NCBI GenBank assembly: GCA_965206705.1
Contig: CBDBKJ010000005.1
Span: 642,979 to 706,978, forward strand
DNA length: 64,000 nt
DNA from: Vicinamibacterales bacterium
GTDB lineage: Bacteria > Acidobacteriota > Vicinamibacteria > Vicinamibacterales > UBA8438
Direction of reading: 5' to 3'
Shown here one piece after another: positions 2 to 10,865 of this stretch (its first letter is position 1; each line of letters starts with the position of its first letter). A program made the position numbers and the translations under genes. The notes under the pieces are model-generated. The model was not told the DNA's origin, did no database searches, and saw only the letters and a program-made list of their open reading frames with translations.

Positions 2-726
2 ATCGTGGGACTGTCCCGGTTCAATCTCCTGACCCATGATCGCGGCGGCAGTGTCGGCTTCGCCTTTCTCGGCAACTATCTGGCGCGTGAGGAGAAGGCA
101 TACGAGATCACCTATCACTTCATATCCAACGGCGGGCTCTTTCTTCCCCTGGCCAACCTGAGCCAGGGCCAGTACGACATTCAGCATCCGGTCCGAGGCG
201 CCGAGCTGATCCGGGAGCAGCAGGCCCGGCCCCGGGTGACGGAAGGCACGCCGCAGCAGGTCGCCTACGCCGACATCCAGGCCTTCAACGACGGGATCGG
301 CGCACGTCTCTACGTCGGAAAGTACCTGCTGGAGAGGACCGCGAACGAGTACCGCTGGCTGGACAACCTCCGCGAGAGCCCGATCCCGACGGCGCTCATC
401 TGGGGGCTTCTGGACACGGTGAACCCGCCCGCATCGGCAATCACATCTGGTACAACTACCTCGACAAGAGGGCGGTGGAAAGCAGCTACTGGCTGCTGCC
501 GACCGCCAATCACTACCTGCAACGGGACGAGCCTGGAGAGATGGCGGGGATCGTCCGCACCTGTCTGGAGGTGGGGATCCCGGCGCCGGAGGACGAGAAC
601 GCGTTCATGCGGACCCTGGCTCGGAACAGGACCGCGACCTCACCCGTCTACATGGGCCGCTCCATCGTCGAGAGCGTCTACTTTCCGGGGGCCGTCGCGT
701 ACTCGCCGGACGGGTACAGTTTCTGA
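2..726 (+). pseudogene. alpha/beta-fold hydrolase (haloacetate dehalogenase/epoxide hydrolase-like), 5'-partial at window edge, apparent frameshift near 428-432
   Basis: Frame 2 reads ...LLTHDRGGSVGF (nucleophile-elbow-like HDRGG) through ...ALIWGLLDTVNP, then loses sense. Frame 1 continues RIGNHIWYNYLDKRAVESSYWLLPTANHYLQRDEPGEMAGIV (ORF 475..726). Total length is not a multiple of 3. Confidence 0.6.
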
Positions 727-756
727 GGGTGAAGTCCGTTTACAGCACCGACACAA

Positions 757-2316
757 CTAACGGTCCGTCTCGCTGCCCAACGGTGTGCGGCCGGAGAGTA
801 TCTCGTAGAAGTCGTCGCGGGCGCCGGGGTCGGACGTGAACCGCGAGACGATGGGAATGACCGCGAGCGGCACGAAGAAAGTGAGATACGAGGGGTCGAG
901 GCCTTCGCCGTCGACGGTGAGGGCGTGCGCCAGGGTGCGGGTCACGAGCCCGGCCGACTCGGGGGCGGTGACCCCGGCGGCGAGGGCGATCTTGATCGCC
1001 GCGAACCAGATCAGCCCGCCCCCGTATCCGACCGCCATGCCCCACCAGGCTCCCTGCTCGGTGGTCCGGGGCCAGTAGATGAGATAGCCGAGGGCCACCG
1101 CCGGCGGGACCACCATGGCGAAGCCGAACAGCAGCAGGTCGAGGATCGAGATCGTCGTCTGGGTGGCCACGAACCAGGCGGCCAGCGCCGCCGCGAAGGC
1201 ATAGAGGGTCGTGGTGACGCGGTACGCCTTGAGCTGCTGCTCAGACGTCTGGCGGCGGGTGGACGGCAGCCAGTCGCGCACCACCATCGTGGCGCTCGAC
1301 AAGAGGATCGGGCCGCCGGAGGAGATGACCGCGGCCAGCACCGCGGCCAGCGCCACCCCGCCGACCAAGGGGTTGATCTCGGAAGCCAGGGTTGTGAGGT
1401 TGCGGTAGCCGCTCAGCCCGGTATCGAGACCGTAGCGGGCGGTGGTGAGGATGCCGATCAGACCCCCGAGCACCGACATCGCGGCCGCAATCAGCCCCCC
1501 GATCAGAAACGCCGGCGCGATCTGCCGCTCGGTGCGGGCCGCCGTCGAGTAGTTCGTGTACACCGAGGCGGCCGGCGTGTGCACCGCCGCCGCGAAGAAC
1601 ATCCCGATGACCGGGAGCCACCCGGCTCCGGCGACTCCCCACCAGGCTGACTCGTCCTCGGATGCCGCGGCCAGGTGGTCGCCGATGGCCGCGGTGACCT
1701 CGGGCCAGCCGCCGAGCTGGTCGATGCCCATCAGGCCCACCCAGAGAAGGCCGACCAGCACCACGGAGCAGTGGATGAGATTCGTCACCGCGGTGCCCCA
1801 CAACCCGCCCAGGGAGACGTAGGTGGAGAAGATGACGGCCGCCACCATGACCCCGCCGAACATCGACAGGGGGGTCAGCGTGCTCAGGATGACCCCGATG
1901 ACGTACGCCTCGATGAGGTTGACGACGGCGTACTCCGTCTGCACGCACAGGCTCGTGAGCCATTGGCACCGCCGCTTCACGAAGCGGATCGTGAACAGCT
2001 CGCCGACCGTCTGGAGCCGGAAGCGCCGGTAGTAGACGCCGAAGAAGAGCCCGACGATGGCCAGGGCGAGAAAGGTGTTGATGCCGTACCACCACAGGTT
2101 CCAGACGCCGCCGCTGATGACGTCGCCGGCCACGCCGTAGGTGCCGGCGCCCCCGATGCGGGTGCCGGCGACGCCGAACGCGACCATGGCGGTGGACATG
2201 CCGCCGCCGGCCACCGCCCAGCCCGCCGAGCTGCGAGCGCGGCGGGCCATGAGGCTCCCGACGGTGGTGGCCGCCACGAGGTACACGACGATGGTCGCGG
2301 GCGCGATCACGTCCAT
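757..2316 (-). CDS. sodium:solute symporter (SSS) family transporter
   Basis: 519-aa polytopic hydrophobic protein. The N-terminal pattern (...GGGMSTAMVAFGVAG...WWYGINTFLALAIVGLFFGVYYRR...) is typical of the SSS family. Co-directional with the upstream selenoprotein gene. Confidence 0.8.
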   Translation of the reverse strand: MDVIAPATIVVYLVAATTVGSLMARRARSSAGWAVAGGGMSTAMVAFGVAGTRIGGAGTYGVAGDVISGGVWNLWWYGINTFLALAIVGLFFGVYYRRFRLQTVGELFTIRFVKRRCQWLTSLCVQTEYAVVNLIEAYVIGVILSTLTPLSMFGGVMVAAVIFSTYVSLGGLWGTAVTNLIHCSVVLVGLLWVGLMGIDQLGGWPEVTAAIGDHLAAASEDESAWWGVAGAGWLPVIGMFFAAAVHTPAASVYTNYSTAARTERQIAPAFLIGGLIAAAMSVLGGLIGILTTARYGLDTGLSGYRNLTTLASEINPLVGGVALAAVLAAVISSGGPILLSSATMVVRDWLPSTRRQTSEQQLKAYRVTTTLYAFAAALAAWFVATQTTISILDLLLFGFAMVVPPAVALGYLIYWPRTTEQGAWWGMAVGYGGGLIWFAAIKIALAAGVTAPESAGLVTRTLAHALTVDGEGLDPSYLTFFVPLAVIPIVSRFTSDPGARDDFYEILSGRTPLGSETDR

Positions 2317-2365
2317 GCGCGGACTCCTCCCGCCCGGCTCTGCCGGGGCGCGGCGCCGTCCGTCG

Positions 2366-2917
2366 TCATGGGCGGGCGGTCAGCGCGGCGAGGATGGCGT
2401 CTATCGCATCCCGCGCCTTTGCCCGCATCTCATCGTCGGTGGCGTCCTGAATCGGATGCGGCACGAACACCGAGCCGCTCGCGATCGCGGGCATGCCAAG
2501 GGCCTCCGCCTGCATCCGGGCGGCGCGGACGAACTCGCTCGACGCCACCATGACGGCGGGGATTCCGCGGGTCTCGTAGTCGACCATGTCGTGCACACTG
2601 CACGACGTGCAGGACCCTCAATCGGCGAGGGCCTGGATGACGGCCCGGCACCGCGCGCCCACCTCCTCCCGCAGGTCGTCCGGGGCCGGCTTGGTATAGG
2701 TCGGCTTGCGCAGGCGGATGACCTCGAGCGACGGCAGCCGCTCGCCGACGAGCCGCTCCACCTCGTCGCAGAAGACATCGCCCCGCGCCTTCGCGATGTC
2801 GATGATGCCCAGGGCGCCCTCGAGGCGGGCGGGCCGGGCCGCGGGCTGCCGCCCCATGGGGGCGCGTTCGTCGGTCGGGTCCAGAATGATCGGGGATTCG
2901 TCGCGCATGTGGTTCAT
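2366..2917 (-). CDS. UGSC-family selenoprotein; in-frame TGA (Sec) at 2618..2620; motif U-G-S-C-T-S-C
   Basis: ORFs 2618..2917 and 2366..2596 are in the same frame (2917-2596=321) and separated only by one TGA. Read-through gives ...AVIQALAD-U-GSCTSCSVHDMVDYETRGIPAVMV..., 183 aa. A UGSC family (seleno)protein is recalled from NCBI naming. The alternative start at 2908 has a better-spaced GAGGA. Confidence 0.7.
2591..2612 (-). promoter_or_regulatory. candidate bacterial SECIS hairpin(s) immediately 3' of the UGA
   Basis: mRNA sense is UGAGGGUC-CUGCAC-GUC-GUGCAG-UG-UGCAC. There are two overlapping perfect hairpins: CUGCAC/GUGCAG (loop GUC) and GUGCA/UGCAC (loop GUG). They start 8 nt after the UGA, with G-containing apical loops. 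Confidence 0.4.
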
Positions 2918-3016
2918 CCTCTGTGGCGGGGTGTTCCGGCTCGAGGGATGCTGCCGTCCACCACCGAGGGCCCATCTTAGCGCGGAAAGCCACGCACCGT
3001 TCTCCGGCGTCGGCGC

Positions 3017-4660
3017 CTATCCCGCGATCTCCCGCGTCACCGCCGTCGAGCCGGCGGCGCCGCTGGCCCAGCCGCCCAACACCGCCGAGAACTTGCCGGC
3101 GGTGCCCCCGGCCACGACGATCAGGATGTCGTCGTCGCGGCGGAACTTCGGCAGACGGGTATCGAGGGCCTCCGCCGTCGGCCGGCCGTCCGCGCCGAGG
3201 TACTCCGGCGGCAGGGCGCCGAGGGCCATGCCCTTCTGGCACTGCTCGTCCGGCAACAGCTCCCGCAGGGGCCTCGCCGTCACCTCCTGAATGCGGGTCC
3301 GGAGGTCCGCCTTGGTGTAGTTCTCCCGCGCGAATGTCCGTGCGTGCTCGGGACTGACCACCAGCAGCACCTCGCCCATGCGGTGCAGCTTGGGGTGCGC
3401 CATGGTCTCCAGGCACCACCCCATGCTGGCCCCCAGCGACCGCGCGGTCCGCGACAGTTGATCCCGGATCGCCCGCGGCGCCTCGCCGGCGAAGACGGTG
3501 ACGGTGCTCGTCTCCGCCGGAAACCCGCGCTCGACGTGCAACGGCTCCCACCCGCTGACTTCTTCGTGCTCGGCGATGCAGCAGGTGAACTTGCCCGGCT
3601 GCCCGAGGGTCGACATGTCGACCTCGCCGGGGCGCCCGCCGCCGACGTTGCGCACGAGAAGCTGCAGCGCCCGGCCGATGGTGGCGTTGGCCCGGAACCC
3701 CTGTCCGAAGACGTTGCCGCCGCAGTTGAGGCCGATGCGCTGGCGGATCGGCCCGTTGACGACGATGACGGGCGTCGCGAAGTAGGTCGTGGCCAGCACG
3801 CCGTGCAGATTGAACGTATCGGTGCACGCGGCCTCGGCGGCCGCGATGACCACCGGCAGATACTCCGGGCGGCAGCCGGCCATGACCGCGTTGATCGCGA
3901 CCTTCTCCACCGTGGCCGGGGCGAGGTTCGGGGGCACGTGGGCGACGACGTCGGACGCCGCCCGGGAGGTGCCTTCGAGCATCCGCAGCACCCGATCCTC
4001 GGTCGGGGGGACGACCGGGAGCCCGTCGCCGAGCCCCTGCGACGCCATGAACTCGAACGGATCGTCGTCGACGGGGATGCGCACCCGCCGGGCCCCCAGC
4101 GTGGCCGCGCCGCGCCGCACCGCGAGGCGGCGGGCCACGTCGGGGTCATGGATCTTCGAGCCGCACCCCGGACGATGCTCGGGCAGACCGTCCTCGTCCC
4201 GGACGATCTCGGGCGCGGCGACCCCGCACGCACCCGCCGCGTCCCGAATCAGGGCGATCAGGTCCTGCTTCACGAACCCCTCGAAGCTGCGCCGGACCCG
4301 GCGGGCCTCGCCGGCCAGGACCAGGGCCGGCACTGCATCGAACCCGTAGTCGGCCGACACCGTGAGGTCGGCGTCGAGGGCCACGTCGAAGCTCAGGCCG
4401 TGCCGGTCCACGAACCCGGCAGTGTCGGCGGCGGCGTCCTGGGAGACTCCCGCGAGCCGCAGGCCGTGCGGGCCGAGGGCCTGGTGAAGCCGCTCGATCA
4501 GCGGCGCCGTCAGGTCGCACGTCGCGCAATCGTGCTTGAAGAAGAAAATCAGGGTGGCCCCGGGGGCGTCGCCGTCGCCGTCGAACGCGAGGGTGGCGCC
4601 TTGCCCGTCGGCCAGCGAGAAGGCCGGCGCCTCGGCGCCGGGGGCGGGCAGGTCGGACAT
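3017..4660 (-). CDS. fusion protein: N-terminal thioredoxin-fold redoxin (AhpC/TSA-like, CATC) + ~390-aa uncharacterised C-terminal domain
   Basis: ATG at 4660 (MSDLPAPGAEAPAFSLADG...). ATLIFFFKHDCATCDLTAPLIERL is a redoxin CxxC region. The C-terminal part (GLGDGLPVVPPTEDRV...NLHGVLATTYFATPVIVVNGP...) matches no family I can name. Confidence 0.75.
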   Translation of the reverse strand: MSDLPAPGAEAPAFSLADGQGATLAFDGDGDAPGATLIFFFKHDCATCDLTAPLIERLHQALGPHGLRLAGVSQDAAADTAGFVDRHGLSFDVALDADLTVSADYGFDAVPALVLAGEARRVRRSFEGFVKQDLIALIRDAAGACGVAAPEIVRDEDGLPEHRPGCGSKIHDPDVARRLAVRRGAATLGARRVRIPVDDDPFEFMASQGLGDGLPVVPPTEDRVLRMLEGTSRAASDVVAHVPPNLAPATVEKVAINAVMAGCRPEYLPVVIAAAEAACTDTFNLHGVLATTYFATPVIVVNGPIRQRIGLNCGGNVFGQGFRANATIGRALQLLVRNVGGGRPGEVDMSTLGQPGKFTCCIAEHEEVSGWEPLHVERGFPAETSTVTVFAGEAPRAIRDQLSRTARSLGASMGWCLETMAHPKLHRMGEVLLVVSPEHARTFARENYTKADLRTRIQEVTARPLRELLPDEQCQKGMALGALPPEYLGADGRPTAEALDTRLPKFRRDDDILIVVAGGTAGKFSAVLGGWASGAAGSTAVTREIAG

Positions 4661-4815
4661 GGCGAGAAGTTTACCTTGATGCGGCGGTTCCCGGTTCCGC
4701 GCGTGCCGAGCGCACCGGTTCCGCCGCCGGCTGGGGTACCATGTTCGCCATGGGCAAACGAGTCGCATTCGTCTTGGGGCTCGCGATCGATCCTGCTCCG
4801 CAGGCGAAAGGAATC

Positions 4816-5211
4816 ATGAGCCGAAACGTCTTGCTGTCGTTGATGCTGGCCGCCGCGGCCGGTTCGCTGGGTGGGTGCGACTCGCTCGGTTCTCTCAATC
4901 CCTTTTCGCCCGACGATGAGGACTTGCATCCGGTATTCGCAGAACTGGTTCCGGACCAGACCTGGACGGTCGATACCGCCGTCCACCTCTCGCTGCCGGC
5001 CGCTGGCGAGGGGAACCCGCCGCTGACCTACGGGCTCTCGCCGGAGCTCCCCGCCGGACTCACGTTCGACGCCGCCGCGCGGACCGTCACCGGTACGCCG
5101 ACCGCCGTCCTGTCTATGACCACCTACATCTATACCGTCACCGACGACGACGACGATACCGCGTCGATGCAGTTCCAGGTCACCGTCGTCGCGGCATCCG
5201 GTTCCGGATAG
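4816..5211 (+). CDS. small lipoprotein with putative Ig-like (cadherin/dystroglycan-type) domain
   Basis: MSRNVLLSLMLAAAAGSLGGC has a lipobox (LGGC) after a GAAAGG RBS. LTYGLSPELPAGLTFDAAARTVTGTPT is the classic putative-Ig-domain repeat signature. Confidence 0.65.
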   Translation: MSRNVLLSLMLAAAAGSLGGCDSLGSLNPFSPDDEDLHPVFAELVPDQTWTVDTAVHLSLPAAGEGNPPLTYGLSPELPAGLTFDAAARTVTGTPTAVLSMTTYIYTVTDDDDDTASMQFQVTVVAASGSG

Positions 5212-5388
5212 ACCAGTTCATCGAACCGTTCCGCAACGTCCGGTGCGAACGTCCATGGCCGTTCGACCGTGGGCTTCAGTACCAGAGCGGCAACCGGGTT
5301 GAGATGGTTCGCGGGCGACGCGATATCACAATGGGAGACTTCATCGTCGTTCGTCCTCACAAGTCAACGGGGACGGAGCCCGTCCGGG

Positions 5389-7566
5389 TCATGACGACGC
5401 ATTTCTGTTGACCTTGCGAAAGGTGAGCGAAATGCGGCGCTTTCGTTTCGTGCGTTTCTCACCCGGCCCGCCGGGTTCGCTCTTTCTCTTCGGCAATTCA
5501 TGCGTCCATTCACGACGAGCCTCGCCGCTCATGACTGCCACACTACGTCGCTCGAGCGGTTGTTCGACCTTCTTCTTCGCTCGCCGTTTGCGGAAAACCA
5601 TCACCCAGGACTCCAGCAGGCTGATGGTCGCGATGCTGTCGGCGAAGCTGATGCTATCCACATGGGCGCTGATGCCCTGATCCTCAATGTACTCGTTGAC
5701 GATAACCTGATCGGGACGCTGTGGCACGAGTCCTTCCGAAACAAGGCGCCGCGCCAGTGCGTCCGCCCAGTCCGGAAGCGGGCCAAGCCGCATGGATGGG
5801 TCGACGTGACGGGCCTTGTAGTCGTACCGCCACCCGTAGTGCTGAACACGCCGAGACAGTTCGGTTTTCCATTCCTGCTGGCCGATGCACGTGACCAGCA
5901 TTTCCTCGTCGTCAGCACTCAGGAAATCCCGCACATACACCAAACCGGGCACGGTCAGCCGTTCGGGTTGCGTGCTGGGGACCGGCAGGAGAGGCGGATT
6001 CGGTAGCGGCCCGGCCTCCGTGGCGACGAGGCGCCGGAACCGGCCGACATCGAGCCCCTTCTCCACTTCCTGGTTCGGCGGCAAACGCAGCCGCACTTCC
6101 CCCTGAACCTCGATCCGCGCTTCCGGAGTGTCGAGTGTACGCACCGCGCCGGGGCCAACATAGGGAATCTGCACGTCCCTCAGGACAACCTCCCCAAAAA
6201 CGCACGGCCAGTTGCGTTTCGTCGCGAGTTTCAGGGCTTCCCTGCGAACCTGCGCGTTCCTGATATCGATCCCGAACCACCGGCCGCGTGCATGCTCGGG
6301 TTTGGCGAAGAAGTCCCTGCCGCCCCAGGACAGGATGATGTTGCCGCCGGCTCGCCGCCATTGCGGCATTTTGGCCAGGGCGGTCGGCCAGCGAATGCCT
6401 CGTGATCCGGCGGCAGTCAGGCGCAAGGCGTGAATGGAAAGCAGTTCACGTTGCAGCGCTTCTCCCCGAAACTGCACATCGAGCCCGCGATACCCATGAA
6501 GAAGACCGCACAGGGTCGCGGCGGACCACCCGATTCCCGGCGGGATCTGCGGCAGGTCCTTGAACCACGTCTTGAACCTCGCCGGCGCGGGACGGGCCAG
6601 CACCAGTTGAATCGCTATTCCGACGGGACAGTGCCGCCAGTTCTGGAGCTGAACGACCGACTCGGCGCGCAAGATCCTGGTCGTTGCGTCCAGCCACGCC
6701 GTCGTCTCGCGGCCGTCCTCTGGCCTGCCCTGCAGCGCCTCCTCATGAATACGGGTCGCCAGTTCCCGGGCATCGACACGAGCGCCGGCCGTCTGGCCAC
6801 GAAAGACCTCCACGGCGGCCAGCCAGAGACGATCGTGCCGGCTGGCCGGAACGGCGTCATCCAGCCGTCCCCCCCAGGGTGGCAGGCACCACCACGAGGC
6901 ATCCACCTTGGCCGCCATGGCGGCCAAGGCCGATCGTTGAGGGTCCAGGCTCGCCGCAAGCGTGTCCAGCCAGAGATCAATCCGCGGGACGCCCCACACG
7001 GCCATGCTCATGGCGCCGTGGATGGCATCCAGTTCGTCCGGAATGCCGATGCCCGTCGTCGCTATTGAAGGGTAGCTCTTCAGGTCGACGCGGTCCCCCG
7101 GGTCGGCCTCGACTTTGACCAGCTCTTCGGGCAGTGCGAGATTGGAGGCGCGTCTCGCCATGCCTGCAAGCCGAACACGCTCTTCTGCGGTCGATACCGA
7201 GATCTCCGAAATGGCGAACACCGGCAGGGCGCCGGGCCAATAGAGGGCGTGGTCGGTTGGTTGGACTCCGCCCAGGCGGCAAAGCCGCCAGCGTTCGTTC
7301 CGCAGAACGTGAATATCGAGGTCGGGCAGCTTTGCCGGATCGAGTCGTGCGTGAACAGGTATCGAATGCACTGCGTCGGACGGGTGTTCGTCACGCGCGT
7401 ACGCTCCGACTCCGATTGGCTGCCCCCACGACGACCGGGGTCGCAGCCAGCCGTCCTGAAGCGCATCGAACAGACGTCGATTGTCGGTGGCCAGTCCGAG
7501 CCACCGGGAGTCCGGTTCGCGGCTTTCAGAAAAGTCCATCGGCATCTGGGATTCGTGGATTGTCAT
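5389..7566 (-). CDS. 725-aa protein: ~535-aa N-terminal region of unknown function + C-terminal AlkB-type 2OG/Fe(II) dioxygenase domain (approx. 5392..5958)
   Basis: C-terminus: ...RVQHYGWRYDY...VIVNEYIEDQGISAHVDS (HxD)...REWTHEL (distal His)...RRISLTFRKV (RxSxTFR 2OG-binding). The start overlaps the upstream gene's stop (7563/7566). Confidence 0.8.
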   Translation of the reverse strand: MTIHESQMPMDFSESREPDSRWLGLATDNRRLFDALQDGWLRPRSSWGQPIGVGAYARDEHPSDAVHSIPVHARLDPAKLPDLDIHVLRNERWRLCRLGGVQPTDHALYWPGALPVFAISEISVSTAEERVRLAGMARRASNLALPEELVKVEADPGDRVDLKSYPSIATTGIGIPDELDAIHGAMSMAVWGVPRIDLWLDTLAASLDPQRSALAAMAAKVDASWWCLPPWGGRLDDAVPASRHDRLWLAAVEVFRGQTAGARVDARELATRIHEEALQGRPEDGRETTAWLDATTRILRAESVVQLQNWRHCPVGIAIQLVLARPAPARFKTWFKDLPQIPPGIGWSAATLCGLLHGYRGLDVQFRGEALQRELLSIHALRLTAAGSRGIRWPTALAKMPQWRRAGGNIILSWGGRDFFAKPEHARGRWFGIDIRNAQVRREALKLATKRNWPCVFGEVVLRDVQIPYVGPGAVRTLDTPEARIEVQGEVRLRLPPNQEVEKGLDVGRFRRLVATEAGPLPNPPLLPVPSTQPERLTVPGLVYVRDFLSADDEEMLVTCIGQQEWKTELSRRVQHYGWRYDYKARHVDPSMRLGPLPDWADALARRLVSEGLVPQRPDQVIVNEYIEDQGISAHVDSISFADSIATISLLESWVMVFRKRRAKKKVEQPLERRSVAVMSGEARREWTHELPKRKSEPGGPGEKRTKRKRRISLTFRKVNRNASS

Positions 7567-8678
7567 GACCGCTCCAGAATATCCGGACTCGGCAACGCGT
7601 CCACCGCTGCTTGCGTGAGGGAATCGGGTCCGTACACCAGAAACAGGCTGTCACGAGCGCGGGTGCACATCATGTACATCGCGCGTAGATCCGCTGCATT
7701 CTTGCACGGCAAGAAACGATCCAGTTCCAAGAGGAAAACCGTATCGAATTCCTGGCCCTTTATGGATGCCTTGTTCAGCAAGGTCACGCCCGGTGAGAGC
7801 AGGTCTATTCTCCCTTCGTTTTGCAGATCGCTTCTGTATATATCAACGCGCTTGCCCTCCAGTTTGCGGACGAGCAAGGCGTGCAAGGCATCGCCGGTGC
7901 CGTTTTGATCGACGACGATGCCAACGCTGCCGCCACGCACGACGCACCAGTTCGACACCAGCTTGGCTGTGGATTCAAGGCTCGCCGATCGGTAGAGTCG
8001 GGGACGCTCGCCAGAGGTTGGGCGGAGCACCGTGGCGGCGGGCAGACCGCCCCCATGGAAGTGCTCGGCCATCCTCGCCACTTCCGGCGCATTCCTATGG
8101 TTTTTCGTCAGAATAAGCGGGTCATTCAGGCCGCTTGCGGTCTTGATGTCTGCGAGCGACGTGCATTGATCTGCGATCGCTTGATCTTCGTCCGCAAAGA
8201 CGGACATTGTTCCTGATACACGCGAAGCGTATCTGAAAAAGCCATAAGGAAGGTCTTGCCCCTCATCCACGACAAGGTGAAACCGTTCAGGGCCATGGTC
8301 AGGCGTCAGGCGTGCGAGCATCACGTCCCAATCATGAACATACTCCTGAAGCTGCGGTGGTGAGACGCCAGTTCGCTGTTTGAAGTCATGCCAGATAAAG
8401 GTATGCATCGTACTAGCTTCCGGAACGATGCGCATTTCGCGATCCGTTGCGGACTCCTTCATCTGTTCCAGCAAGCGCCGCAGCATACGATTGTAGGTGA
8501 CGAGTTTGACGGCCAGCCCCGACCCCGCCTCCACCAGCATCCGGGCCCGGTGCAGGGCAAGGACGGTCTTGCCAGAACCCGGAGGCCCCACAACGAACAG
8601 CGACCGGTCAAGGGGGTATTCCAGTACGTTGAGCTGGTCCTGCGCATTGGCGATTTCGTTCCAGGTGGGAAGCTGCAT
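7563..8678 (-). CDS. SF1 UvrD-like helicase/ATPase (short, ~371 aa)
   Basis: Walker A VVGPPGSGKT, Walker B HLVVDEGQDLP, ADEDQAI, KNHRNAPEV, IKGQEFDTVFLLE and MCTRARDSL. Start chosen at MQLPTWNEI (8678); the upstream extension to 8834 runs through a repeat and looks non-coding. Confidence 0.8.
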   Translation of the reverse strand: MQLPTWNEIANAQDQLNVLEYPLDRSLFVVGPPGSGKTVLALHRARMLVEAGSGLAVKLVTYNRMLRRLLEQMKESATDREMRIVPEASTMHTFIWHDFKQRTGVSPPQLQEYVHDWDVMLARLTPDHGPERFHLVVDEGQDLPYGFFRYASRVSGTMSVFADEDQAIADQCTSLADIKTASGLNDPLILTKNHRNAPEVARMAEHFHGGGLPAATVLRPTSGERPRLYRSASLESTAKLVSNWCVVRGGSVGIVVDQNGTGDALHALLVRKLEGKRVDIYRSDLQNEGRIDLLSPGVTLLNKASIKGQEFDTVFLLELDRFLPCKNAADLRAMYMMCTRARDSLFLVYGPDSLTQAAVDALPSPDILERS

Positions 8679-8729
8679 GTCGGTTTTCTCAAAGTTGAAG
8701 GGTGTCTTGCGCAGCGCGGTGAAACAGTG

Positions 8730-8779
8730 CGTATCTAAGCGGGGCGGTCGTACATGGTTCCAGTGCTTCTCTCCGCCTC
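8730..8779. repeat. direct repeat copy 1 (50 nt)
   Basis: CGTATCTAAGCGGGGCGGTCGTACATGGTTCCAGTGCTTCTCTCCGCCTC. Identical to 8956..9004 except for one extra G in the G-run. Confidence 0.85.
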
Positions 8780-8866
8780 CGAAGGACCGGAGCGCAGCGG
8801 AGGACGCGCGATTGTTCCGCCCGCAGCAAGCCACCGCACGCCCGCCCCGGAAGCGGAATCCGCGGG

Positions 8867-9742
8867 TCAGTTCCGAGCTGCCTTTTCGCCGTCAGCCGCG
8901 CCTCGTGGACCCGCCGAATCGGCTCCGATTCCACCCACACCTGTTTTAGGAGAGCCGTATCTAAGCGGGCGGTCGTACATGGTTCCAGTGCTTCTCTCCG
9001 CCTCGATTGTTCCGTTGTCGTCCGCGATCATCCAGAATCCTGCAGCGTGCAGCGAGCTCCTGAAGCCGGGGAAAGCGAGGTTGGCGGCCGGCCTGACAGA
9101 ATTCGTATAGAGGACGGTAACAGGTCCTCGGCCAAGTTTGTTGAGCAGTTTTTCCAAGTCCTCAATGAGCGTGACCGCGTTCAGCGTCGGACTTGCGAGC
9201 AGGTAGGAAACAATGACGAACACTGGACGCCACTTCGGCGCCGGGCGCCAAGACACGGAGGAGATCGCGGACGACCAGTGGCGAGCGATCCGGAGCGCCC
9301 TATTGTGGTGTTCCGCCGCGCTTGCGAGTCGTTCGCCGAGCTCGCGCATCGCCTTGGATCGATCCACCCCGATGTAGTCGAATCTCGGGGCGGCGCCGAG
9401 AGCGCTGGCGAACGCAAGTCCGCCGGTAAACGGCCCGCAGCCCAAATCAACAACGATTGGTGCTTCCGGCAACGGTCCGGTAAACAGCATTTGAAACGCC
9501 TCGATGAGCTCCTGAAGGTGTCCAAATTGAAAAAAGTGAGTGTACATCAGGACGCGGTCGTCAGGCGACAAGTCCTGCCAACCCGTATCGAAATCGGCCT
9601 GTCCCCACCCGGCGATCTGGTGCGTTGCAGTGTTGCCATCGTAGCCAAGTATCGTGCCAGGCTGGGAACGAGGATCCATGTTTACGCGCTGCGTGATTTC
9701 AATGTCACGCAGCTTTTGCAGCCATTGGGGAAGTTGAGACAT
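8867..9742 (-). CDS. class I SAM-dependent methyltransferase-like protein (C-terminus altered by a 226-bp duplication/insertion)
   Basis: Motif I-like IVVDLGCGPFTGGLAF followed by YIGVDRS. There is no other recognisable family signature. The last ~45 codons run through repeat copy 2 and a G+C-rich insert. Confidence 0.55.
   Translation of the reverse strand: MSQLPQWLQKLRDIEITQRVNMDPRSQPGTILGYDGNTATHQIAGWGQADFDTGWQDLSPDDRVLMYTHFFQFGHLQELIEAFQMLFTGPLPEAPIVVDLGCGPFTGGLAFASALGAAPRFDYIGVDRSKAMRELGERLASAAEHHNRALRIARHWSSAISSVSWRPAPKWRPVFVIVSYLLASPTLNAVTLIEDLEKLLNKLGRGPVTVLYTNSVRPAANLAFPGFRSSLHAAGFWMIADDNGTIEAERSTGTMYDRPLRYGSPKTGVGGIGADSAGPRGAADGEKAARN
8956..9004. repeat. direct repeat copy 2 (49 nt)
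   Basis: CGTATCTAAGCGGGCGGTCGTACATGGTTCCAGTGCTTCTCTCCGCCTC. Lies inside the 3' end of the MTase-like ORF (encodes EAERSTGTMYDRPLRY). Confidence 0.85.
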
Positions 9743-9872: not shown

Positions 9873-10865
9873 TCACGGCAGGGGACTCGTCAGTAGGTCG
9901 GAGTACAGGTCGTAGAAGGCGCCGACGTCCAGATCGAGCATCACCTCGAGGGGGCGGGCGCGGGGGTCGTCCGGCGCCGTCACCGAGGTGGCGCCGCAGG
10001 CGGGGCCGAACGCCGTCTCGACCGCGATGGGCAGCGACTCGGACACCGTGACCACCGAGGGGTCGACGAGCCAGGCCGCGGTGATGCAGTCCCACACGTA
10101 GTAGGTGGCGGCGGGGTCGCGGGCGTAGCGCGGACCCATGTGGTGCTGCATGAGCCGGGTGAGCGGCGTGCCGGCGGCGACGATGCGGTCGAACAGGGCC
10201 TTGCGCACCGGGGCGTGGTTCGTGATGTCGAGGCCGAACATCACGAGGGAGGGCACGCCGGCCTGGAGGACCTCGGACGCCGCGTCCGGATCGAACCAGA
10301 TGTTGAACTCGGCCGCCGGTGTCACGTTCCCCGGCACCCGCGCGGCCCCGCCCATGAAGACGACGCGCTTGACGCGCGGCGCCAGATCGGGGCGCGCGCG
10401 GAACACCTGCGCGAGGTTGGTCATGGGGCCGACGGCCACGAGGGTGACCTCGTCGGGCCGGCGCTCGATGGTGTCGATGATGAACGACGCCGCGTCGGTG
10501 GGCCGGGGACGGACGGCCGCGAAACGTCCGCCGTGCGGCGGGCGCACCTCGGGTTCCGCGTCGAAGGCGCCCTTGAACGTGACTGGCCCCCACTGCGACT
10601 CCTGGCGCGCCGCCCGCTCCGGGGTGTTGACGAGGGGGGCGCGGGCGCCGAGATGGAGCGGGACGTCGGCCGCCCCCACGAGCTCCAGCAGATGCAGCAT
10701 GTGCTCGGCTCCCTGCGGGACCGTGTGGTTGCCGGCGACCACCGTGACGCCGAGCACGTCGACCCGGTCGGGCCGGCGAAGGAGCATGGCGAGGGCCGCG
10801 GCGTCGTCGTTGAAGACGGCCGAGTCGGTGTCGAAGATGATGGGCTCGGGCTCAGAAACGGACAT
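9873..10865 (-). CDS. nucleoside hydrolase (inosine/uridine-preferring family)
   Basis: N-terminal IIFDTDSAVFNDDAAALAMLL (DxDxxxDD Ca-binding motif) and 330 aa, typical for the IU_nuc_hydro family. Overlaps the TonB receptor stop by 14 nt. Confidence 0.8.
   Translation of the reverse strand: MSVSEPEPIIFDTDSAVFNDDAAALAMLLRRPDRVDVLGVTVVAGNHTVPQGAEHMLHLLELVGAADVPLHLGARAPLVNTPERAARQESQWGPVTFKGAFDAEPEVRPPHGGRFAAVRPRPTDAASFIIDTIERRPDEVTLVAVGPMTNLAQVFRARPDLAPRVKRVVFMGGAARVPGNVTPAAEFNIWFDPDAASEVLQAGVPSLVMFGLDITNHAPVRKALFDRIVAAGTPLTRLMQHHMGPRYARDPAATYYVWDCITAAWLVDPSVVTVSESLPIAVETAFGPACGATSVTAPDDPRARPLEVMLDLDVGAFYDLYSDLLTSPLP

Follow-up and report, generated by a model that had tools for sequence, protein, structure and literature searches.

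The locus described here raises the question of what a selenoprotein of the UGSC family, known as a major aquatic selenoprotein whose function is not assigned (Zhang & Gladyshev 2007/2008, PMC1976440, PMC2398784), does in the company of a thioredoxin-like fusion protein and a membrane transporter. In the window, by which we mean the whole stretch of 64,000 nucleotides that was analyzed, three co-directional genes on the minus strand are separated by short gaps of 99 nt and 49 nt. They encode a 547-amino-acid redoxin fusion (3017 to 4660, stop codon included), the UGSC selenoprotein (2366 to 2917), and a 519-amino-acid transporter of the sodium:solute symporter (SSS) family (757 to 2316). A preceding sequence-only reading had recognized this arrangement and named its members as a CATC redoxin fused to a domain of about 390 amino acids, a UxxCxxC selenoprotein, and an SSS-family transporter; all of these assignments were borne out, with a length of 382 amino acids for the domain, here called X. 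It had also likened the locus to the glycine and proline reductase systems, a comparison that held only in part.

The UGSC protein is a full member of its family, scoring 150.3 bits with NF041046 (curated cut-off, 125) and 150 bits with PF24696 (E = 9e-44; cut-off, 25). Translation from the ATG at 2917 yields 183 amino acids, but the ATG at 2908, with GAGGA 8 nt upstream, is the likelier start. When the single in-frame TGA at 2618 to 2620 (minus strand) is read through, the translation contains ALAD-U-GSCTSCSVHD, which places selenocysteine U100 in the motif D-U-G-S-C-T-S-C-S-V-H-D. This TGA is a true Sec codon, because tRNA-Sec, SelA, SelB, and SelD were all found in the genome, the position is TGA in 73 of 74 homologous loci, and the codon is followed by a conserved hairpin with frozen synonymous sites. 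The SECIS-type hairpin, GUCGUGCA-GUG-UGCACGAC, lies 11 to 13 nt after the UGA (2588 to 2606, minus strand; conserved core, 2590 to 2604), and its consensus CGUGCA-GUN-UGCAYG is kept in all 38 sequences tested. In the same region, all 67 cases of Ser+7 use AGT, which accounts for only 7% of serine codons in the rest of these genes, and all 74 cases of Cys+6 use TGC.

For the redoxin-X fusion, the start at 4660 is preferred over that of a longer open reading frame from 4768, since it fits the more than 8000 homologs at 75 to 95% identity, most of which are 545 to 551 amino acids long. Residues 8 to 131 (4268 to 4639, minus strand) form a thioredoxin-fold domain of the TlpA/ResA/AhpC-TSA-like kind, which exceeds the gathering scores of PF00578 (E = 3e-12) and PF08534 (E = 2e-8) and has ResA and a putative thioredoxin as its closest solved relatives. 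It carries the CATC active site at residues 45 to 48 (4517 to 4528), and C-x-T-C is kept in 97 to 99% of 69 fused homologs. No signal peptide or hydrophobic segment was found at the N-terminus, MSDLPAPGAEAPAFSLADGQG, and a protein with neither signal peptide nor membrane anchor is therefore cytoplasmic. The domain shares its fold and C-x-x-C center with TlpA/ResA/DsbE oxidoreductases but differs from them in being cytoplasmic, fused to X, and below the family cut-offs (32 bits with NF002854; cut-off, 170). Between redoxin and X lies Cys166 (P-G-C-G-S-K; codon at 4163 to 4165), present in 99% of the 69 fused homologs.

Domain X (residues 166 to 547; 3020 to 4165, minus strand) represents an unnamed family. 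It matched nothing in Pfam or NCBIfam and had neither a sequence match nor a significant fold match in the PDB, and no recognizable catalytic fold or cofactor motif emerged from these comparisons. Structure prediction, which the sequence-only reading had suggested for this part of the protein, gave an AF2 model with a pLDDT of 90.4 and a pTM of 0.89. In the protein library, the family forms 5279 clusters at an identity threshold of 50%, and it displays the motifs DGLPVVPPT, NAVMAGC, G-x-R-A-N-A-T-I-G-R-A, C-I-A-E, and V-A-G-G. Its universally conserved residues, Asp47, Asn160, Arg165, and Glu199 (X numbering), are polar and include no cysteines. In exported fusions, other residues take the place of Cys98 and Cys196 of X, and a thiol relay through X is therefore not universal.

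The conserved unit is the pair of X and UGSC, and it extends across many phyla. Of 301 genomes of the phylum, 29 encode UGSC, and these are exactly the ones that encode X (Fisher p = 5e-41); 26 of their 35 canonical UGSC genes have an X gene no farther than 1.2 kb away. In a set of 80 loci that spans about 15 phyla, 74 have UGSC as the gene immediately after X; the set covers Acidobacteriota, Chloroflexota, Binatia, Gamma-, Alpha-, and Betaproteobacteria, Actinomycetota, Myxococcota, Spirochaetes, Rokubacteria, and others. Usually the two genes form a bicistronic unit, and in about 70 of the 80 loci X carries the C-x-T-C redoxin as a fusion. Moreover, X and UGSC are themselves found as natural fusions in either order, namely UGSC-X in genome G112, in a family of 560- to 630-amino-acid proteins, and in the global library (P0170 and P0265), and X-UGSC in the same library (P0137, P0181, P0211, and P0256). 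This arrangement is far beyond chance. Tight and broad linkage, rather than a lack of conserved linkage, is what we found, and the proposed link between UGSC and the redoxin fusion therefore stands, with neighborhood, phyletic pattern, and gene fusion all in agreement. A second, paralogous pair without redoxin is present in this genome, and diverged paralogs of X number up to 12 per genome. In six loci selB, in some of them with selA, is located directly upstream of the pair, and acyl-CoA enzymes recur nearby (raw counts in 80 loci: CoA-transferase III, 16; acyl-CoA dehydrogenase, 13; enoyl-CoA hydratase, 9). In the UGSC literature searched, we found no description of an obligate partner, a redoxin fusion, or GrdB homology; fusion of UGSC to a conserved domain, "Unknown_1," was already noted in 2008 (PMC2398784), and this domain may or may not be X.

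Sequence comparisons identify UGSC as remotely homologous to the Sec-containing segment of selenoprotein B from the glycine and proline reductases. GrdF, GrdB, or GrdH models were matched by 20 of 28 UGSC proteins (best E = 3.7e-6), and BLASTP aligned U100, C103, and C106 of UGSC with U352, C355, and C358 of a GrdB-like protein, along with the E-x-x-G-I-P segment. The shared signature of GrdB, GrdF, GrdH, PrdB, and UGSC is U-G-[ST]-C-x-x-C followed by E-x-x-G-I-P, which reads UGSCTSC here and UGTCNRC in the GrdB-like protein. The similarity is short, about 60 to 90 residues; hhalign of UGSC and GrdB returned E = 5e-5 at a probability of only 67%, and with the selenoprotein B families TIGR01917, TIGR01918, and PF07355 (architectures of about 430 or 240 amino acids) the protein encoded here scored 13 to 16 bits (cut-offs, 65 to 800), confined to model positions 331 to 421 of 431. 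Like GrdB and PrdB, UGSC has a larger second subunit encoded beside it, depends on a nearly irreplaceable Sec, and is proposed to need a dithiol-type reductant. It differs from them in its length of only about 175 amino acids, which covers the last 90 or so positions of the 431-position model, in having X and no pyruvoyl proprotein as partner, and in that no GrdA, GrdC, GrdD, or PrdC gene was seen near X-UGSC. The defining reaction of those reductases is the reductive splitting of a C-N bond in an amino acid or betaine, with a dithiol as electron donor.

X occupies the position of PrdA/GrdE (PF09338), that of the larger subunit beside the Sec subunit and presumed substrate binder, but many Sec-containing fusions have Ala in place of its sole candidate processing cysteine (A-G-C). 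A pyruvoyl subunit of the PrdA/GrdE type was ruled out as the identity of X, there being no sequence relation, and X is also unrelated to the N-terminal part of GrdB. Canonical GrdB/PrdB and GrdE/PrdA are absent from this genome, and PF09338 had no match in it in a search run without a positive control. Because X has no recognizable catalytic fold and is unrelated to PrdA/GrdE, its chemistry may differ from that of Grd/Prd. What survives of the earlier analogy with these reductases is the Sec/Cys homology of UGSC and GrdB; the pyruvoyl partner and the GrdA/C/D logic do not. The hosts differ as well, UGSC occurring mostly in lineages regarded as aerobic heterotrophs and Grd/Prd in amino-acid fermenters.

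We propose that the locus encodes a two-subunit Sec-dependent reductase with its own fused thioredoxin-type re-reductant, a reading that we consider evenly balanced between right and wrong. X would be the substrate-binding or catalytic subunit, on which UGSC would dock, bringing a U-x-x-C selenol/thiol pair at a helix N-terminus in a flavodoxin-like fold. AF2 modeled a natural X/UGSC fusion as a single compact body (pTM, 0.90) with a flavodoxin-like alpha/beta/alpha UGSC domain, whereas a "likely Trx-like fold" was proposed for the family in the literature (PMC1976440, PMC2398784). The selenolate would attack the bound substrate and cleave a carbon-heteroatom bond, as in the PrdB/GrdB selenoproteins; in PrdB, Sec attacks the alpha-carbon of the substrate, and the U151C variant is inactive (PMC11229817). 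A neighboring cysteine would resolve the adduct to a selenenyl-sulfide, which the C-x-T-C redoxin fused to X would re-reduce, possibly via the invariant linker Cys166, by drawing on cellular thioredoxin-type reducing power.

The same components might instead constitute a selenol antioxidant or a peroxide- or disulfide-reducing system, in which UGSC would act as a Sec-peroxiredoxin/GPx-like protein recycled by the redoxin and X as a scaffold or sensor. The hosts of X-UGSC come largely from lineages regarded as aerobic heterotrophs, which would suit such a role. AhpC/TSA is the best Pfam match of the N-terminal domain, and a thiol oxidoreductase function is assumed for most prokaryotic selenoproteins with U-x-x-C (PMC2398784, PMC13188914). 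However, the redoxin center is a TlpA/ResA-like C-x-T-C and not a peroxidatic T-x-x-C, the UGSC fold is flavodoxin-like rather than Trx-like with resemblance to GrdB/PrdB, and the neighbors are metabolic genes. A partner of about 380 amino acids with invariant Asp, Asn, Arg, and Glu and up to 12 paralogs per genome looks more like substrate diversification, and we regard an antioxidant function as improbable. Still less probable is a metal or metalloid module (Se, S, Hg, As, or an Fe-S or Zn site), with U-G-S-C-T-x-C-S-x-H-D and Cys166, Cys263, and Cys361 serving binding or transfer and the redoxin keeping the ligands reduced. It would account for the eight conserved Cys/Sec residues plus His109 and Asp110 of the cytoplasmic type and for a U-x-x-C-x-x-C spacing that resembles cluster or metal binding, and LMW-phosphatase/ArsC-like folds were listed by Foldseek for the UGSC domain beside flavodoxin-like ones. 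Yet exported fusions keep U-x-x-C while losing the second Cys, the His, and the Asp of UGSC and both X cysteines, metal-resistance or transport genes do not recur nearby, and the same U-G-T-C-x-x-C motif is found in GrdB, which belongs to a reductase family regarded as non-metallo.

The third gene is of narrower distribution. Its product matched PF00474 over positions 3 to 406 of 406 (E = 5e-23, 82 bits; gathering, 22.8), has about 10 or more predicted transmembrane segments, and is preceded by a ribosome-binding site, GGAGGAG, 7 nt upstream. It scored 112 bits with TIGR00813, below the cut-off. This whole-length SSF family membership is shared with PutP, PanF, and ActP, but the protein falls under every equivalog cut-off (PanF, 41 bits versus 328; PutP, 37 versus 515; ActP also far below), so that its substrate is not assignable. 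SSS adjoins UGSC in 3 of 29 genomes of the phylum and in close marine relatives, where a FadJ-like enzyme accompanies it; within 8 kb of the pair it was found in none of 80 loci of other lineages, and only 13 of the 80 have a polytopic membrane gene of whatever kind at a distance of up to 2.5 kb. The link to SSS and FadJ is lineage-limited, a transporter link outside this lineage is not beyond chance, and as a general feature of the system the transporter finds no support.

There is accordingly a considerable, if minority, chance that X-UGSC alone is the unit and that SSS is a mere lineage-acquired neighbor serving unrelated uptake or the FadJ-like pathway alone, in which case the logic of import plus reduction would fail. 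Apart from the counts given above and the usually bicistronic pair, this is favored by a genome in which the SSS orthologue lies 710 kb from the pair (G236), by a locus with an 81% identical X but no SSS (L004), and by a genome in which the FadJ-like gene directly follows UGSC without SSS (G044). On the other hand, wherever SSS is present it immediately follows UGSC in the same orientation, at a distance of about 35 to 150 nt; this order holds even for relatives whose X is only about 81% identical, in soil as well as in Tara Oceans contigs, and the 49-nt gap here contains no terminator-like site. Under the reductase reading, the downstream SSS of this Vicinamibacterales lineage, putatively co-transcribed, probably imports the substrate or its precursor, which is likely to belong to the small organic acids. 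What it imports would, in sister genomes, be passed on to the FadJ-like hydroxyacyl-CoA dehydrogenase/hydratase encoded by the next gene in the operon; FadJ is absent from this window.

Pairing with X gives UGSC a testable working context, to which a transporter belongs only in this lineage. Tentatively, and with somewhat more doubt than belief, we suggest that X and UGSC form an undescribed class of Sec-dependent reductase, with an offshoot of GrdB/PrdB as the Sec subunit and a substrate subunit that has a fold without solved relative and no pyruvoyl group. If true, this class would be widespread in soil, freshwater, and sea among lineages usually considered aerobic, would have given rise to many paralogs, some of them exported, that cleave different small organic substrates, and would be the main reason for keeping the Sec machinery in several lineages.

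Upstream, synteny with relatives (G110, G258, L004, L104, and L110) identifies an inosine-uridine nucleoside hydrolase gene (9885 to 10841, minus strand; PF01156, E = 2e-69) as the ancestral neighbor of the operon in this lineage, from which it is parted here by an insertion.

All three co-directional minus-strand genes proposed in the sequence-only reading were recovered in place by ORF analysis, translation and family searches, and the gaps between them, estimated there at about 100 and 50 nt, measured 99 and 49 nt. The redoxin-X gene (3017-4660, minus strand) encodes a 547-aa protein that lacks a signal peptide and joins a thioredoxin-fold domain (residues 8-131; PF00578, E=3e-12; also PF08534) to a C-terminal domain, here called X. 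The thioredoxin-fold domain has a CATC motif as its centre and, among solved structures, is closest to ResA and a putative thioredoxin. That X resists assignment was borne out, as residues 166-547 gave zero Pfam or NCBIfam matches. The start at 4660, preceded by an 80-nt divergent spacer, agrees with homologues of 545-551 aa, whereas a longer ORF from 4768 does not. The UGSC gene (2366-2917, minus strand) encodes 183 aa through a single TGA readthrough at 2618-2620 (ALAD-U-GSCTSCSVHD) and passes the curated family cut-off (NF041046, 150 bits versus 125; PF24696 also matched). ATG 2908 is likelier to be its start than ATG 2917, because GAGGA lies 8 nt before it. The third gene (757-2316, minus strand) encodes a divergent sodium:solute symporter (SSS; PF00474) scoring below all substrate-specific models. 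A promoter and terminator scan gave no informative signal.

The TGA at 2618-2620 is a selenocysteine codon. The source genome encodes tRNA-Sec, SelA, SelB and SelD, and TGA occupies the Sec position in 73 of 74 homologous loci spread over many phyla. The odd locus, on a Blastococcus sp. MAG contig (L051:750-1607), carries TAG there in an otherwise intact UGSC gene, which could be explained by faulty assembly, by pseudogenisation or in some other way. A hairpin, CGUGCA-GUN-UGCAYG, lies 13 nt 3' of the UGA in 38/38 sequences examined and lengthens to 8 bp in the window copy. No compensatory changes were found in it among the compared sequences; synonymous sites are frozen instead. Ser at +7 is AGT in 67/67 cases, although in the rest of these genes no Ser codon is used less (7%); TGC encodes the Cys at +6 in 74/74, whereas the Cys codons at +3 split 47:27, and codon +5 is NCG in 73/74 loci.

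X is the obligate partner of UGSC. Among 301 genomes drawn evenly from the phylum, UGSC was present in 29, with TGA in every case, and X was found in the same 29 genomes plus two marginal matches (Fisher p=5e-41); 26 of the 35 canonical UGSC genes in this sample have an X gene no more than 1.2 kb away. Beyond the phylum, a pattern search with one genome per species matched at least 600 stretches, the best 80 of which derive from Vicinamibacteria, Dehalococcoidia, Anaerolineae, Binatia, Pseudomonadales, Alpha- and Betaproteobacteria, Acidimicrobiales, Myxococcota, Spirochaetes, Rokubacteria, Methylomirabilia and others. X is followed by UGSC on the same strand, at a spacing of roughly 0-200 nt, in 74 of these best 80 loci, and at least one type of exception arises because mobile elements have inserted behind X. 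The neighbourhood conservation check proposed earlier came out in favour of the X partner (74 of the best 80 loci) and against the transporter outside this lineage. A conserved third gene was found on neither side of the pair among the best 80 loci: in 29 of the 74 no co-directional ORF lies within 300 nt downstream, the remaining loci all differ, and the commonest upstream neighbours are SelB, in 6 loci, and an alpha/beta hydrolase, in 5. In the protein library, the X family comprises 5279 clusters at 50% identity (E<=0.001).

The two proteins also occur fused. In a library of 1.8 billion proteins, both X-to-UGSC and UGSC-to-X fusions came to light through gene predictions that stop at the Sec codon, and one genome of the phylum sample (G112) encodes a cytoplasmic UGSC-X fusion of 552 aa. 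In one family of the phylum, each genome has 2-12 genes for 560-630-aa proteins that are UGSC-like in their N-terminal half and X in their C-terminal half, most bearing a signal peptide or Tat-lipobox. These exported paralogues (L084-L102, from G290, G220, G300 and G063) mostly contain G-H-U-S-S-C or G-D-U-G-S-C, and in several copies Ser, Leu or Asn replaces Sec or Cys, suggesting that such copies are non-redox paralogues. Five library proteins of 709-741 aa (P0141, P0159, P0183, P0208 and P0245) contain two X-like stretches and no Pfam domain, and are possibly tandem X-X architectures. The source genome itself encodes a second pair, 470 kb from the first (G000:C5:171906-173656, minus strand; L003 7877-9702), in which a stand-alone 367-aa X without redoxin, 43% identical to the first X, precedes a second Sec-containing UGSC, 31% identical to the first. 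It adjoins two PQQ-dependent dehydrogenase genes, a layout repeated in G110 and G258.

Profile and alignment evidence places the origin of UGSC in the selenoprotein B line of the Stickland reductases. Twenty of 28 diverse UGSC proteins gave weak but consistent matches to GrdF, GrdB, GrdH and "various selenoprotein B" models, always on the last ~90 model positions (best E=3.7e-6). GrdB-like and PrdB-like genes for comparison were drawn from genomes also carrying the X-UGSC pair; the GrdB-like protein has U-G-T-C-N-R-C, and its U, both Cys and an E-x-x-G-I-P block align with UGSC by BLASTP, while profile-profile comparison gave E=5e-5 and a probability of 67%. The proposed analogy to glycine, betaine and proline reductases (Grd/Prd) stands for UGSC through its homology to GrdB and fails for the partner, X being unrelated to the pyruvoyl subunits PrdA and GrdE. 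Kinship of X with PrdA/GrdE, or with the N-terminal region of GrdB/PrdB, is rejected: 35 members searched gave no Pfam or NCBIfam match even at E<=1, and comparing X by hhalign with GrdB/PrdB-like proteins returned a probability of 0.2%. A search of the source genome, run without a positive control, found no canonical Grd/Prd genes. Loci L123-L131, from genomes that also carry X-UGSC, encode many PrdB-like selenoproteins that are short (270-320 aa), number up to five per genome, contain U-P-V-C-H-Q or U-P-D-C-C and score below the selenoprotein B cut-off.

Structure prediction of X alone, another check suggested earlier, gave a confident model (pLDDT 90.4, pTM 0.89) with no significant fold neighbour in the PDB. 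Foldseek against the PDB returned nothing below E=0.02 (TM 0.19 for the best match), the top matches being Toblerone-fold cyclic amide hydrolases, chorismatase and class I fumarase at TM 0.19-0.29, and a profile search of PDB sequences was empty. The natural G112 fusion was predicted by AlphaFold as a confident single body (pLDDT 89.7, pTM 0.90), with the UGSC part appearing as a flavodoxin-like alpha/beta/alpha fold and Sec at a strand end and helix start. The thioredoxin fold guessed in the literature for UGSC is not supported by this model.

UGSC was first reported in 2007-2008, is one of the major GOS selenoproteins (PMC1976440, PMC2398784), and is still listed without function in a 2026 review (PMC13188914). 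Among tractable organisms, Hyphomonas neptunium reportedly encodes it (PMC1976440). The 2008 paper mentions a fusion of UGSC to an "Unknown_1" domain, which may be X (PMC2398784). In the UGSC literature searched we found no mention of an obligate partner, of a redoxin fused to it, of homology to GrdB, of a non-thioredoxin fold or of X lacking a solved relative. An obligate, so far unnamed X partner (~5300 clusters, without a solved relative), a usual thioredoxin-type domain and descent from selenoprotein B together turn UGSC from an orphan into a defined, expressible candidate for a two- or three-module enzyme. Our finding would amount to the logic of a Grd/Prd-type Sec reductase with a different partner, and suggests that the use of Grd/Prd-like selenium chemistry extends far beyond anaerobic amino-acid fermenters.

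In D-proline reductase, Sec of PrdB attacks the PrdA-bound substrate, and U151C is inactive (PMC11229817). On this model, to which we give about an even chance, X would bind the substrate by its conserved Asp, Asn, Arg and Glu, the UGSC selenolate would cleave a carbon-heteroatom bond, the Cys three residues after Sec would form a selenenyl-sulfide, and the fused C-x-T-C redoxin, perhaps through Cys166, would return UGSC to its reduced state. These steps are inferred; what the data demonstrate is the gene structure, the linkage, the fusions and the homology. D47, P50, P54, T55, N160, G164, R165, E199, W206 and a G-G near the C terminus (X numbering) are universal in X. A C-x-T-C redoxin lies N-terminal to X in about 70 of the best 80 loci, and the 69 fused proteins share invariant C45, C48, linker C166 (in P-G-C-G) and, within X, C263 and C361. 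An antioxidant system built on this redoxin and selenoprotein seems improbable to us, and a metal or metalloid site marginally more so. The exported fusions retain U-x-x-C and lack the second Cys, His and Asp of the UGSC motif; in them C263 is replaced by Ala and C361 is variable. The loss of these two residues (Cys98 and Cys196 of X) in Sec-containing exported proteins weakens the case for a Cys relay or Fe-S site in X as a universal feature.

In this lineage, the SSS symporter would likely import the substrate of the proposed X-UGSC reductase, or a precursor; that it is functionally unrelated to the pair is, independently of the other readings, a serious possibility that we place somewhat below even. 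An orthologous SSS gene follows UGSC in only 3 of the 29 phylum genomes, all from this genus and one sister genus, and in close relatives on Tara Oceans and ENA contigs. A general transporter linkage is rejected: an SSS homologue lies within 8 kb in 0 of the best 80 outside loci, and any gene with at least six TM segments within 2.5 kb of the pair in 13 of the best 80.

Substrates should be sought in organic acid and acyl-CoA metabolism. Recurrent neighbours, as raw counts in the best 80 loci, are CoA-transferase III (16), acyl-CoA dehydrogenase (13), SDR (10), alpha/beta hydrolase (10), enoyl-CoA hydratase (9), SelB (8) and SelA (7). The Tara Oceans and ENA relatives have a nucleoside hydrolase gene followed by redoxin-X, UGSC, SSS and a FadJ-like enoyl-CoA hydratase/3-hydroxyacyl-CoA dehydrogenase; the window has lost the FadJ-like gene. 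In a sister genus, both X-UGSC pairs are split inside a 21-kb cluster (G044:C1:1228590-1249674; L116, L117), with a FadJ-like gene directly after UGSC, and another relative (L112, L113) has HicB, HEPN/AbiV and transposase genes at the expected UGSC position.

Relative to a same-genus genome, the window has ~4.3 kb extra between the operon and the nucleoside hydrolase (9885-10841). The block at 4741-9742, absent from that genome (where the gap is 920 nt), has the appearance of an inserted island. Its products are a He_PIG lipoprotein (4741-5211, plus strand), a protein of 725 aa whose C-terminal domain is a 2OG-Fe(II) oxygenase (5389-7566), a UvrD/AAA-like protein (7563-8834) and a protein of 291 aa without family (8867-9742). 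On the other side, an ORF at 2-760 (plus strand), convergent on the transporter gene and without synteny in G110 or G258, appears hydrolase-like by eye, although Pfam matches neither fragment. Its frame apparently changes near 430-475 at the C-rich run GAACCCGCCCGC, protein-like sequence resuming in another frame, and it is either a pseudogene with a frameshift or an error in the sequence.

In five loci from Alphaproteobacteria, Acidobacteriota and Acidimicrobiaceae (L018, L019, L021, L053 and L075), selB is the immediate upstream neighbour of redoxin-X/UGSC in the same orientation, with selA just upstream of selB in L053, which suggests that in these organisms UGSC is a main client of their Sec machinery.
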